14,514 nt of DNA, from the IMG/VR virus record IMGVR_UViG_2724678985_000014. One strand, given 5' to 3'. Shown here in pieces: positions 11,229 to 14,514 of the stretch. Origin of the DNA: a virus. Taxonomy: Duplodnaviria > Heunggongvirae > Uroviricota > Caudoviricetes. A model generated the notes under the pieces. The model worked only from the letters and a program-made list of their open reading frames with translations, ran no database searches and had not been told where the DNA came from. Each line of letters starts with the position of its first letter. Position 1 is the first letter of the stretch. A program made the translations under genes and the position numbers.

Positions 11229-11762
11229 TTATCTGTCAATTCCCCAGCACGCCAGCGCGCTCTCCTGGTCACGCCGTGAGACCTGACCGTAGCAGTTGTT
11301 TGAGCGAATACGGCAGTCTCTGCCACCGTCCTTAATCCACCAGCGAATCGCCTCGCATGCTCCCCTGCGGTCACCAGCATTAATCCGTCTGTAAAACGTC
11401 GACGGGAAACACTTACCGGGGCCAATGTTGTACGGACAGAATGACGCAATCCCCGCTTTCTGGGGTTCGGTCAGTGGCACTCTGATGTTTTTCTCCACCC
11501 ATGCCAGCGCCTTATCACGTTCAATGGCGTTAACCTGGTCGCATTTTTCCTTCGACAGCTTCATGCCAGGAATCACAGGCTTACCATCCACCATGATGGC
11601 ACCTCGGCAGATGGTCCAGATACCCGCACCATCACGGTATGCCGTGGTGTGGTTACCTTCCTTTTCATCCAGAAACTGGTCGAGAATGTCAGGCGCAGGC
11701 GCACCAGCGGCAATCAGCGCCAGAACGGCAGCCGACAGGCCGTATTTGATTTTGGTGTTCAT
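11229..11762 (-). CDS. R: Endolysin, GH24 (T4-lysozyme-like) family, with an Ala/Gly-rich N-terminal hydrophobic segment (candidate SAR or signal sequence)
   Basis: 177 aa. Catalytic-triad spacing E35-D44-T50 (EGNHTTAYRDGAGIWT) as in T4 lysozyme E11/D20/T26 and phage 21 R. Residues 4-24 (KIKYGLSAAVLALIAAGAPAP) are weakly hydrophobic and Ala/Gly-rich. Lies in the lysis cassette between holin and Rz. Confidence 0.9.
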   Translation of the reverse strand: MNTKIKYGLSAAVLALIAAGAPAPDILDQFLDEKEGNHTTAYRDGAGIWTICRGAIMVDGKPVIPGMKLSKEKCDQVNAIERDKALAWVEKNIRVPLTEPQKAGIASFCPYNIGPGKCFPSTFYRRINAGDRRGACEAIRWWIKDGGRDCRIRSNNCYGQVSRRDQESALACWGIDR

Positions 11763-11804: not shown

Positions 11805-12227
11805 TTATATACGTCCTTTAAGATAAGTCAGTCCTGGATGAAACCAGTAAGCCGGCACTTTTTTAAAGGGCGGGTTGTCAAACTCACGAAGAAGAGCCTC
11901 CCGCACAACTGCATCCTTGTCCGCACCACTGGCCAGCGCTTCAATCTCAGCAGCTATCTGCAGATATCCCATGCAACGACCAATGCACTTCATCAGCCCC
12001 TGCTTTTTATTGTTCTTCAGGTAATCAATGGCAAATTCAATGAGCACCTCACTATGCTGGTGCGATGGCGGTGTTACTTTTCCATTTTCTGAGATGGTTA
12101 TTTTCCCAGCATCACCGGATACAACAAAGGATGGCCGGTTACACTCCCATTCCAGCTCACTGAAATTATCATTATGAATACTGAAACACTCTGAGAGATT
12201 TCTGCTCATCGCGGCGTTTTTTTTCAT
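11805..12227 (-). CDS. Hypothetical protein encoded between holin and endolysin (start uncertain)
   Basis: 140-aa ORF with no TM segment or signal peptide and four Cys. The first ATG (12227) is followed directly by A8 (plus T8 at 12217-12224) and has no SD. Overlaps the upstream 49-aa ORF by 56 nt. E. coli Qin prophage has ydfR at the equivalent position (recollection), but I cannot confirm homology. Confidence 0.45.
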   Translation of the reverse strand: MKKNAAMSRNLSECFSIHNDNFSELEWECNRPSFVVSGDAGKITISENGKVTPPSHQHSEVLIEFAIDYLKNNKKQGLMKCIGRCMGYLQIAAEIEALASGADKDAVVREALLREFDNPPFKKVPAYWFHPGLTYLKGRI

Positions 12228-12321
12228 CTTCAGAAGGCATCAGCGTCGACAGTTTTTTATTCAGTTCAGCAATTTCATTTTCCAGACGACTGAAGCGCTG
12301 ATTCATTTCTTCATGGTTCAT
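12172..12321 (-). CDS. Hypothetical 49-aa charged helical peptide, translationally coupled to the holin stop
   Basis: ATG at 12321-12319 lies 4 nt after the holin TAG (GGA GAT TAG GTG ATG), with GGGGAG 8 nt upstream inside the holin 3' end. Encodes MNHEEMNQRFSRLENEIAELNKKLSTLMPSEDEKKRRDEQKSLRVFQYS. Below the ORF-track size cut-off; found by manual translation. Confidence 0.35.
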   Translation of the reverse strand: MNHEEMNQRFSRLENEIAELNKKLSTLMPSEDEKKRRDEQKSLRVFQYS

Positions 12322-12324
12322 CAC

Positions 12325-12540
12325 CTAATCTCCCCGGGCAGCCTTGCGACGGTCCTCTTTAATTTTGAAATACAGGTTAGTCAGATACGTCAGCAGGCCA
12401 AACAGCAGACTCCCCAGCACACCTATCGCCACCCACTGGGACGGAGAGACTTTGTCCAGCAGCTGCAGTAACCAGTATCCCGTCCCCACCGCTGACGTGG
12501 TGTATGACACACCTGTTGTGATTTTTTCCATCTGGTACAT
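12325..12540 (-). CDS. S: Class II holin of the phage 21 S21 (pinholin) type with dual-start motif
   Basis: 71 aa. [71 protein letters not shown] matches remembered S21 and DLP12 EssD-type holins. Met1 and Met4 give the antiholin/holin dual-start arrangement. GGGAG SD sits 7 nt upstream of Met1. Two TM segments. Confidence 0.92.
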
Positions 12541-12575
12541 ACCCCGTCTCCCGTTATCCGGAAGCTCACAACATG

Positions 12576-12605
12576 AAAAAGGCCAGCAGCTGTTTACTGA
12601 TGGCC
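12576..12605 (-). terminator. Terminator-like hairpin on the coding strand just upstream of the holin SD
   Basis: Stem 12581-12589 ggccagcag paired with 12597-12605 ctgatggcc (one mismatch, 7-nt loop). On the minus strand it is followed by TTTTT (plus A5 at 12576-12580). Lies between the stop of the acidic ORF (12617) and the holin start. Confidence 0.35.
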
Positions 12606-12616
12606 CTGACTCCCCG

Positions 12617-12889
12617 TTACAGCATCATGACCGATTCGGGTTGAGGTTCAGTCGCATCGGCGACCGGTGATTCAGGCTGAACTTCACCGCTCTCTGCGGT
12701 GGTATCTCCCGCTTCAGTCGGTGGCTCTGCCTGTACACCAAGCAGCTCATCCAGAATGGCATCAACCTCTGCATCAAGACGCGCTTCCAGGTTATGGCGA
12801 AGTTTTTGTTTCAGTGCGCTCCGGACTTCTTCAGAGCGCAGGACTTCCTTCACTGCTTCAGCAGTGACCAGGGATGTAATTTCTGACAT
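12617..12889 (-). CDS. Hypothetical acidic protein (helical N-terminus, Glu/Asp/Pro/Thr-rich tail)
   Basis: Start placed at the internal ATG 12889-12887, giving 90 aa ([90 protein letters not shown]). The N-terminal 58 residues of the ORF-track call are low-complexity and overlap a better small ORF. Weak SD. Confidence 0.4.
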
Positions 12890-12929
12890 GGGATTTTCTC
12901 GTCGAAAGATGTGATTAAGAAAGTTGCCG

Positions 12930-13109
12930 CTAAATGAGCGGCTCTTCGGGTTTGCTTCCGGCTGACTGACTGGCGCTGATTTTCTCAGCGGCCCTTTTGT
13001 CAATCTGTCTGCGCCAGAAGTCACGCATGGCCCTGTACCCACCCGAAAGGAGATACAGCACACAGACCACCGTACAGAAGTACAGCATTAACTGGTTCAG
13101 AAATGTCAT
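12930..13109 (-). CDS. Hypothetical 59-aa small membrane protein (N-terminal TM helix, basic tail)
   Basis: Manual translation from ATG 13109-13107: MTFLNQLMLYFCTVVCVLYLLSGGYRAMRDFWRRQIDKRAAEKISASQSAGSKPEEPLI. Hydrophobic residues 5-22 then a positively charged segment. Weak SD (GGAAAG). Confidence 0.35.
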   Translation of the reverse strand: MTFLNQLMLYFCTVVCVLYLLSGGYRAMRDFWRRQIDKRAAEKISASQSAGSKPEEPLI

Positions 13110-13205
13110 AATTTCTTTCCGTTATTGTTGACAATAAGAACTGTTTTCATTTAAAAAACCAGAGCACGAAAGTATCGTTCCTTTATTTTTTCTCCATAGG
13201 TATTA

Positions 13206-13245
13206 CCACCGCCAGCGTCCATTCCTGTCGCTGGCGGTTTTTTTT
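13206..13245 (+). terminator. Strong plus-strand intrinsic terminator (9-10 bp GC-rich stem followed by T8)
   Basis: 13209-13217 ccgccagcg paired with 13229-13237 cgctggcgg (11-nt loop), immediately followed by TTTTTTTT at 13238-13245. Oriented opposite to all neighbouring genes. No T-tract on the minus-strand side. Confidence 0.6.
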
Positions 13246-13265
13246 ATCATGCCGCAGTGTCTGTG

Positions 13266-13465
13266 NNNNNNNNNNNNNNNNNNNNNNNNNNNNNNNNNNN
13301 NNNNNNNNNNNNNNNNNNNNNNNNNNNNNNNNNNNNNNNNNNNNNNNNNNNNNNNNNNNNNNNNNNNNNNNNNNNNNNNNNNNNNNNNNNNNNNNNNNNN
13401 NNNNNNNNNNNNNNNNNNNNNNNNNNNNNNNNNNNNNNNNNNNNNNNNNNNNNNNNNNNNNNNNN
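13266..13465. other. Assembly gap: run of 200 N
   Basis: Read directly from the sequence. Interrupts the 3' end of the esterase-like gene. Because 200 is not a multiple of 3 and the true gap length is unknown, the frame across it cannot be inferred. Confidence 1.
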
Positions 13466-14514
13466 CCGTCTCCGGTCAGGGCAACGCCCTGTGGCAGTGA
13501 AGATACCGGCCAGTAAAACGCCATAACATACTGGTTCGCAGCCAGCGCTCCCGAAACCTTAAAGCGGCAGCGAATCTGCCCCCCTTTCTGTAACAGAGCC
13601 GCACCGTTGCCCGCGGCGTACTCCAGCACCCAGCTGCTTTTACCGGCTTCCTTGGTCAGCTTCACTGCCTTACCTCCGGTTCCCTCCGCATCGCTGACCA
13701 CTTCTGCCCTGCCGCCACTGGCTGACCATCCCTGTACTTTCAGGCTTCCCTCTGACTCGCTGGCAAGGTAAGAGAGCAGTGTTGTGACGCCTGTGGCTTC
13801 TGCACCGGAAGGCGATGACGGGCGCACCTCTGATACTGTCGATGATGCCCCCGCGTTTAGCGCCACTCTTCCCGCATGGCGCAAAATCGCCGTTGCCAGA
13901 CGGTCGGAAATAATCCCACGGCGTGCCCAGGCGCTGAAATGGCTCGCCCTGTCCTGTGACGTCCAGGTGGCTGAGCTGTCACGCCATTTCGAACCGTAAT
14001 ATCCGATACCCGGAATGTCCGGGTCTTCTTCCGGTTTGTTCGTCGGCACATTCACCCCATTCTCATCCGTCATGAACGGTACGAAATGGATATTCTTTTC
14101 CGTTTTGTTTTTGTAGCTGCCGTACACCGTCTGGTACGAGGATTCGTTCTTCTGCTTCCAGAAATACGTCGTGTCCCCGCATATCCAGGGAACACCGTCA
14201 GCAGAGCCACCGACGCACTGACCTGCCATATCCGCCAGGTCTGCACGGAATTTATCAACCTGCGCACCAAACTGTGCTGCGTGATTTGCCGGCGTACCGC
14301 CAAAATCAAATTCCCCCTGCATCCACACCACGGCAAACAGCACATTTTTCGGATTCTTCTTCAGTGCTGCTTTTGTTCGACCGATAAGGTCCTTATACAG
14401 CGGCTTGTCCACACCCCAGCGGGTTGAATTCTCCGAGGCACCACTCGCGTCACTGTCTGTGCCATCCGCCCCGGTGGTGAACGCTGAACCACCACGACAG
14501 CACGGAACCAGCAG
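13466..14514 (-). CDS. Partial NanS-p-like prophage esterase (sialate O-acetylesterase / SASA family); 5' end beyond the window, 3' end lost in the N gap
   Basis: The frame is open from the window edge (14514) to the gap; the ORF-track M at 14412 is a GTG inside a longer frame. Contains VVWMQGEFD, resembling the SASA-family W.QGESD block, then a long Ser/Gly/Ala-rich C-terminal region. Lying upstream of S on the late strand is where Stx and related lambdoid prophages carry nanS-p (recollection). Confidence 0.55.

Follow-up and report, generated by a model that had tools for sequence, protein, structure and literature searches.

What is encoded between the esterase gene and the holin gene of a Shiga toxin (Stx)-phage-type prophage, and does this material belong with the esterase or with the lysis genes? 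The question was raised by a viral DNA stretch of 14,514 nucleotides (nt) (IMG/VR record IMGVR_UViG_2724678985_000014; Duplodnaviria, Heunggongvirae, Uroviricota, Caudoviricetes), hereafter the window, which is the whole stretch analysed in this study. At positions 12576 to 13109, an earlier note made from the sequence alone had reported two small unannotated open reading frames (ORFs) and a hairpin, at coordinates that proved accurate to the base; all three lie on the minus strand. The gene order on this strand, 5' to 3', is esterase, 59-amino-acid (aa) ORF, 90-aa ORF, hairpin, holin, a broken gene, lysozyme R and Rz/Rz1. We found that the two ORFs are conserved genes of the families DUF1378 and DUF826 and that the hairpin is conserved with covariation. 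The explanation that we favour, with moderate confidence, is that these are two real late-operon genes in an esterase-linked cassette, and that the hairpin before the holin gene acts as a terminator which is read through under Q.

The 59-aa ORF (12930..13109, minus strand) starts with ATG, and its product matched Pfam PF07125 (DUF1378) with 134 bits (cut-off 25, E=2e-39), residues 1-59 aligning to positions 1-59 of the 59-position model. It also matched phrog_494 (E=1e-40) and is identical to the RefSeq/PGAP protein WP_000143458.1, "DUF1378 family protein", which is annotated in E. coli E2863. The Kyte-Doolittle 19-residue maximum was 1.98 at residues 3-21, which indicates one N-terminal transmembrane (TM) helix; the TM segment probably covers about residues 3-25. 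The AlphaFold2 model was a single continuous helix over residues 2-50. In the 20 residues after the TM segment, there were seven K+R versus three D+E, so that by the positive-inside rule the product is predicted to be a bitopic inner-membrane protein with the N-terminus outside, the C-terminus inside and a basic cytoplasmic helix. Conservation was seen in the TM core, LYFCTxVCxLYLxSGGY, and in a cytoplasmic motif, AAEKISASQSA. A small GC-rich hairpin, GCCGCUCAUUUAGCGGC (12926..12942, minus strand), spans the DUF1378 stop codon; the folded 29-nt stretch gave -10.5 kcal/mol (z -3.4), and the hairpin was flagged by a terminator scan, with a weak T-tract.

The 90-aa ORF (12617..12889, minus strand) also starts with ATG. 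Its product matched Pfam PF05696 (DUF826) with 102.9 bits (cut-off 25, E=1e-29, model positions 1-70 of 75) and phrog_311, and it is identical to WP_001290231.1, the "DUF826 domain-containing protein" that RefSeq/PGAP annotates in E2863. PHROG 494 and PHROG 311 are families without assigned function. The protein is predicted to be cytoplasmic and is strongly acidic, with an isoelectric point (pI) of 4.19 and 20 D+E versus seven K+R. In the AlphaFold2 model, a short helix at residues 10-17 was followed by a long, confident helix at residues 20-49, with a predicted local distance difference test (pLDDT) score of about 90. The pLDDT of residues 57-90 was below 50, and the model suggested that these residues form a disordered tail. 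DUF826 is composed of a conserved helical N-domain (about residues 1-52), in which the long helix is amphipathic, and a fast-evolving, acidic, Pro-rich tail. The earlier note was therefore right about the single N-terminal TM helix and the acidic product. It had also called the ORFs unannotated and not recognisable, and this was contradicted by the RefSeq/PGAP entries and by hidden Markov model searches, which placed both products in curated Pfam and PHROG families.

To evaluate whether both frames are genuine genes, we took the DUF1378-to-holin segment from 80 loci of the main subfamily, which gave 62 distinct sequences for the conservation analysis and for the ratio of nonsynonymous to synonymous substitutions (dN/dS, Nei-Gojobori). 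DUF1378 was intact with an ATG start in 62/62 sequences (length 59-64 aa), and its dN/dS was 0.195. DUF826 had the ATG start in 62/62 and was intact in 61/62 (81-96 aa); in the remaining case (L079), there was no stop codon inside the extracted segment. The dN/dS of DUF826 was 0.115 over codons 1-52 and 0.42 in the tail, which contained in-frame indels only, stayed acidic and Pro-rich, and ended in MML or MMM. Only in the proposed frames did the variation fall mainly on third codon positions, and the shifted frames gave dN/dS values of 1.8-4.2, compared with 0.195 and 0.115. A non-coding status of both ORFs was ruled out because dN/dS was low. On this substitution pattern, DUF1378 and DUF826 are genuine protein-coding genes under purifying selection.

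A third, 148-aa ORF call with a GTG start (12617..13063, minus strand) consists of the DUF826 gene and an upstream open frame that overlaps DUF1378 in another frame. The suspicion voiced in the earlier note, that this call joins non-coding sequence to the acidic ORF, was borne out. The Pfam DUF826 model begins at Met59 of the 148-aa ORF, and the extension frame gave a dN/dS of 1.80, close to the 2.03 of the third-frame control, while the DUF1378 frame over the same bases gave 0.17. Variation in the extension peaked at its own codon position 2. Earlier in-frame stops were present in 6/62 distinct relatives, the extension offers GTG or TTG starts only, and several distant DUF826 homologues start at the equivalent Met. 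Because of these findings, we regard the 148-aa protein as an artefact. Such long DUF826 models (127-148 aa, GTG/TTG starts, overlapping DUF1378) are widespread in databases; they include ORF45 of phage BP-4795, PHROG 8301, where the long form has its own family, and PGAP calls of 127-141 aa (P0012, P0015, P0020, P0031 and P0061). A natural DUF1378-DUF826 fusion was likewise rejected, since only one protein, P0008, combines the two Pfam domains, and it forms a cluster of one member found on one contig. The relatives thus held two conserved frames rather than one longer conserved protein spanning both ORFs.

The hairpin occupies 12576..12607 on the minus strand, 9 nt past the DUF826 stop codon and 35 nt ahead of the holin ATG (12540). 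Its stem (12607..12579) has seven pairs, a 1x1 mismatch, four pairs and a 5-nt loop, and the T5 run lies at 12580..12576, giving five U followed by C. The folding energy was -15.2 kcal/mol (z = -3.85), and 0/200 shuffles folded as well, so the stem with T5 was present as the earlier note had drawn it. A simple terminator scan did not flag the hairpin, probably because of the internal mismatch. Sakai prophage Sp5 has an identical hairpin (NC_002695.2, 1272723..1272753), in which the T-run occupies 1272749..1272753. The stem was kept with differing sequences among 21 distinct DUF826-to-S spacers. In 17 aligned variants, 95.9% of cells were paired, compared with 19-73% when the 3' partner was slid. 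Three pairs showed double-sided compensatory changes (GC/AU, AU/GC and CG/GC), and no shuffle reached the observed covariation score. In most variants, 4-7 T directly followed the stem. On these features, the hairpin is a conserved terminator-like stem-loop, and the most economical reading is an intrinsic terminator that closes the cargo block, with termination predicted from the sequence.

The same hairpin and T-run were found directly upstream of S in prophages that lack the pair and in which the cargo ends with an esterase gene or what remains of one. The BLAST similarity of these pair-less prophages begins at window position 12609, 2 nt before the stem. In thousands of E. coli prophages, this element therefore marks where the holin module begins on its 5' side. 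In two such loci (L129 2501..2570 and L130 2501..2570, corresponding to window 12540..12609), DUF1378 and DUF826 are absent, and the hairpin, the T-run and a stem resembling the sdi (structure-directed initiation) element are kept upstream of an S21-type holin.

These observations bear on the best-surviving alternative, which is possible although clearly the less probable account: the hairpin may be an RNA-level element of the S leader rather than a terminator, serving in processing, in stabilising a 3' end, or as the partner of the sdi-like stem in setting the ratio of holin starts. The hairpin travels with S in prophages without DUF1378/DUF826, as this alternative would expect, its U-tract is short and is degenerate in some variants, and a second conserved stem lies 15 nt downstream beside the Shine-Dalgarno sequence. 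It is opposed by the 4-7 T right after the stem in most variants, and by the distant subfamily described below, which has no match to the S21-type holin and in which the DUF826 stop is followed by a different, unrelated hairpin whose tail is rich in T. The T-tracts and the unrelated T-tailed hairpins indicated that an end-of-unit signal fits better than an S-specific translational element. Among the orphan Hfq peaks of Tree et al. from CRAC, which combines cross-linking with cDNA analysis, in Sakai Sp5, none was listed at the DUF826 3' end, in a list whose filter excluded sense-strand peaks near coding sequences. A Term-seq data set of strain Sakai exists in GEO and is cited in PMC7547250.

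The second stem-loop (CUUCCG/CGGGAG; 12548..12564, minus strand) lies just upstream of the holin Shine-Dalgarno sequence. It gave -8.7 kcal/mol (z -2.35), and in the 21 intergenic variants the stem was invariant and the loop variable. The holin begins with MYQM, in which Met1 and Met4 form a dual start. In lambda S and in S21 of phage 21, an sdi stem-loop accompanies a dual start, and in S21 pinholin and antiholin arise from Met1 and Met4. The window resembles these systems in the MYQM start and in the small conserved stem-loop just upstream of the Shine-Dalgarno sequence. By analogy of position, the probable counterpart of sdi is the second stem (12564..12548), not the hairpin at 12576..12607.

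Which neighbour does the pair belong to? In 75/75 main-subfamily loci with enough flank, the C-terminus of an esterase was encoded 138-173 nt upstream of DUF1378. A distant subfamily of 33 loci, in which identity is about 40-48% for DUF826 and 52-59% for DUF1378, keeps the order esterase, DUF1378, DUF826, and the esterase was present in all 31 loci with enough upstream sequence. The window's S21-type holin had no tblastn match in any of these 33 loci, and DUF826 was followed there by a small ORF and then com/mom genes. Conversely, the DUF1378/DUF826 pair is missing from many prophages that have an S21-type holin. The pair was read as esterase cargo rather than as part of the lysis cassette because it always follows a NanS-p-type esterase, even where there is no S21-type holin match. 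As judged from this synteny, the esterase, DUF1378 and DUF826 would form a fixed three-gene late-operon cargo cassette that is not part of the S21 pinholin/SAR (signal-arrest-release) endolysin machinery. The distant-subfamily loci (L092-L124; for example, L093 2786..4377 and L109 2783..4864) carry the diverged cassette and then Mu-like com and mom (DNA modification), and their contigs often end soon after. In one case, a more distant DUF826 homologue stood alone between Rz and a terminase gene.

The earlier note had suggested that the two products could be lysis regulators. Such a role, in which DUF1378/DUF826 would be accessory regulators of pinholin/SAR-endolysin lysis, antiholin- or releasin-like, and would tune S21 triggering, is unlikely. 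The pair does lie immediately upstream of an S21-type holin in 80/80 main-subfamily loci, in the same operon and orientation. Several known lysis modulators are small single-pass membrane proteins, which DUF1378 would resemble by analogy. However, the pair tracks the esterase and not the holin: the 33 distant-subfamily loci keep it with the esterase and have com/mom after it instead of an S21-type holin match, and very many S21-type holin cassettes occur without it. Searches of known lysis protein families gave no Pfam, PHROG-lysis, NCBIfam or PDB match for DUF1378 or DUF826, and no sequence or fold similarity to known lysis proteins appeared in family, PDB or Foldseek comparisons. The TM segment of DUF1378 is strongly hydrophobic, which reads as not SAR-like.

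According to the explanation that we favour, induction would lead Q-modified RNA polymerase to transcribe the cassette from pR'. We inferred this step because nanS-p mRNA rises with mitomycin C, by 1-2.4 log after treatment (PMC10462455). The stem-loop and U-tract after the DUF826 stop would act as an intrinsic terminator that ends Q-independent cargo transcription ahead of the holin gene, so that the lysogen would be spared holin expression; after Q antitermination, the polymerase would read through it. With low confidence, we suggest that the basic cytoplasmic helix of DUF1378 may dock the acidic DUF826 at the membrane, the two proteins forming a unit that serves the esterase cargo.

Several observations weigh against this explanation. 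No experiment or homology gave a function to DUF1378 or DUF826 in the PDB, fold, NCBIfam and PADLOC searches: PDB sequence searches with both family profiles returned nothing significant, Foldseek of the DUF826 model against PDB returned no match below E=7 for a fold too simple to inform, NCBIfam had no match for either protein, and the PADLOC defence models had none at E<=1. The Shine-Dalgarno sites of DUF1378 and DUF826 are both weak, and no Ribo-seq or proteomic evidence was found for the two proteins. The short U-tract is interrupted in some variants (CTCTTGTT, TTTATATT), and the L126 hairpin has no T-run; therefore, termination may be inefficient, or the element may instead serve to stabilise or process RNA. 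Esterase genes without the pair exist in E2348/69 PP2/PP5 and in L130, so the esterase does not need DUF1378/DUF826. Within the main subfamily, the allele types of DUF1378 and DUF826 reassort independently, so that co-evolution lends no support to the two proteins forming a physical complex. Published mention of DUF826/DUF1378 was limited to a single sentence of PMC10462455. Searching by locus tags yielded unrelated papers only, and a further match for the DUF names was discarded as a typo for DUF1738.

A bolder reading, which we consider quite doubtful, gives the gap an active role in one of two forms. Either DUF1378/DUF826 would be a two-protein unit acting on or with NanS-p, or DUF1378 would be a membrane-active peptide whose dose is set by an antisense RNA and the terminator. 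If this were true, the two-protein unit might, for instance, retain the esterase at the inner membrane ahead of lysis or control its release or timing there, and a small regulated module, not passive cargo, would occupy the gap from esterase to holin.

The candidate antisense RNA lies on the plus strand at 13128..13245, in the 138 nt that separate the esterase stop codon from DUF1378. This gap is outside the interval of the earlier note, and the element had been overlooked there. Its promoter-like box is TTGACA (13128..13133), N18 and TAAAAA, ending at 13157. The body extends over 13169..13245, with a terminator stem at 13208..13238 and a T8 run abutting the esterase stop codon; the terminator gave -20.1 kcal/mol (z -6.6). 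Rfam RF02676 (Esr41) aligned end to end with 30.9 bits (E=0.0013), far below the gathering score of 102. Shared with Esr41 were the core UUUUCUCCAU...CCGCC.GC/GCUGGCG-U7 and the terminator, while the 5' third of the window element differs. Sakai Sp5 has a nearly identical copy of the element, and 43 distinct relatives keep the promoter-like box and the terminator, with the body in several alleles. These results suggested that the element is probably related to Esr41, although not a curated RF02676 member. The small RNAs (sRNAs) PasA and PasC of enteropathogenic E. coli (EPEC) lie in the same esterase-holin position (Table S6 of PMC8550237; 2026 preprint). The window element is like Esr41 and PasA/PasC in being antisense to late genes, in the terminator abutting the esterase stop and in a length of about 80 nt. 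The PasA/PasC bodies showed no significant similarity to the window. PasA/PasC were therefore rejected as the sRNA of the window, in which the Esr41-like element holds the position.

Could DUF1378 be a type I toxin-like membrane peptide, controlled by an Esr41-like antisense RNA that pairs with the late mRNA upstream of its start? Divergent sRNA/toxin layouts are exemplified by zorO-orzO and tisB-istR, and the arrangement in the window resembles them by analogy: DUF1378 is a 59-aa peptide with a hydrophobic N-terminus, and a conserved antisense sRNA gene with a promoter-like box and a terminator lies 60-136 nt upstream of its ATG. Nevertheless, we consider this very improbable. PasA and PasC hold the same post-esterase position without DUF1378, one DUF1378 subgroup has only a 57-nt gap and no terminated antisense unit, reports describe Esr41 and the Pas RNAs as Hfq sRNAs that act in trans, and the Pfam, NCBIfam and PADLOC searches gave no homology to toxin families. 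The least probable alternative, also raised in the earlier note, is that DUF826, with or without DUF1378, is anti-defence cargo, such as an acidic DNA mimic blocking restriction or another defence; the low pI, the acidic tail and the prophage cargo position would suit it, but there are only 20 acidic residues, about half of them in the disordered, rapidly evolving tail, the conserved part is a single amphipathic helix and not a DNA-like surface, the position deep in the late operon before the lysis genes is too late to shield incoming DNA and speaks against an early anti-restriction role, and no match was found in the NCBIfam, PADLOC or PDB searches.

As for the wider setting, the locus is part of a lambdoid E. 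coli prophage of the Stx-phage type and lies in its late operon. A 961-nt stretch around the locus showed 100% identity to E. coli E2863 and 98% identity to Sakai prophage Sp5, phage BP-4795 and numerous phages of the Stx1a, Stx2a and Stx2c types. The complete esterase-to-holin stretch was present in 964/5426 complete E. coli genomes, with as many as 14 places in one genome, as well as in 304 phage records. Named homologues of DUF1378 and DUF826 were from Escherichia or Shigella only. An exhaustive profile search of 1.84 billion representatives returned only 53 clusters (50% identity), in which the DUF826 profile recovered only the DUF826 family, and an alignment scan for DUF826 in species-representative genomes gave no confirmed locus. 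The two families are very narrow.

The NanS-p-type sialate O-acetylesterase gene is represented by its 3' part (13247..14514, minus strand), with its stop at 13247, and it runs off the window. A 200-base N run (13266..13465) masks the middle of the esterase 3' half, which makes a full reading impossible in the window. The window esterase matched the E2863 SASA family esterase WP_024222300.1 at 100% and has the domains DUF1737, SASA and DUF6645; in some cases PGAP calls the upstream protein "DUF6645 domain-containing protein", and its architecture is the same. On the other side, the 71-aa S21-type class II holin (pinholin; 12325..12540, minus strand) matched Pfam PF04971 Phage_holin_2_1 (E=8.5e-33) and is called a class II holin by PGAP. 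In the holin-lysozyme interval, ORFs of 50 aa and 140 aa (11805..12324, minus strand) are two pieces of one 185-aa gene of phrog_1085. This gene is intact in L127 (4438..4995), and it is broken in the window by a deletion of about 41 nt with a frameshift and in E2863 by IS1203 instead. The lysozyme R gene, which we take to be of the SAR type, lies downstream of the broken gene at 11762..11229 on the minus strand.

About one in five complete E. coli genomes carries the pair, which is located in the late operon of Stx phages, with the toxin/esterase cargo on one side and the lysis genes on the other; a conserved covarying stem-loop marks the border ahead of the pinholin gene. The gene models correct the inconsistent annotation in PHROG 8301, BP-4795 ORF45 and the long PGAP calls. 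No new kind of system was revealed, and the experimental search space was narrowed.

In comparison with known systems, the window's DUF1378 gene is a full member of Pfam PF07125/PHROG 494, which includes ECs_1210 of Sakai Sp5 and ORF44 of BP-4795, in the same nanS-p-to-S position. The DUF826 gene is a member of Pfam PF05696/PHROG 311, which includes ECs_1211 of Sakai Sp5 and ORF45 of BP-4795, again in the same position. BP-4795 ORF45, PHROG 8301 and some of the 127-141-aa PGAP calls use the long start, whereas the evidence favours the 90-aa form. The hairpin is like the tR'-type terminators of lambda and Stx phages, through which Q-modified RNA polymerase reads, in having a GC-rich stem-loop and then a U-run and in lying upstream of the lysis genes on the late operon's sense strand; it differs in lying kilobases downstream of pR'/tR', directly before S, with only five U. 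By analogy, DUF1378 and DUF826 recall the T4 antiholins RI/RIII, P1 LydB and Mu releasin, as well as the type I toxins Hok, ZorO and TisB, which may be likened to them as small proteins with a single TM segment near lysis genes or a divergent sRNA. They differ from these lysis modulators and toxins in showing no sequence or fold similarity to them and in being syntenic with the esterase, not the holin. Both DUF families were already catalogued and annotated, and the hairpin is an ordinary terminator-like element; what is new is that the gene models have been resolved in favour of 59 and 90 aa over 148 aa, that the pair has been tied to the esterase cassette rather than to lysis, and that covariation supports the hairpin.

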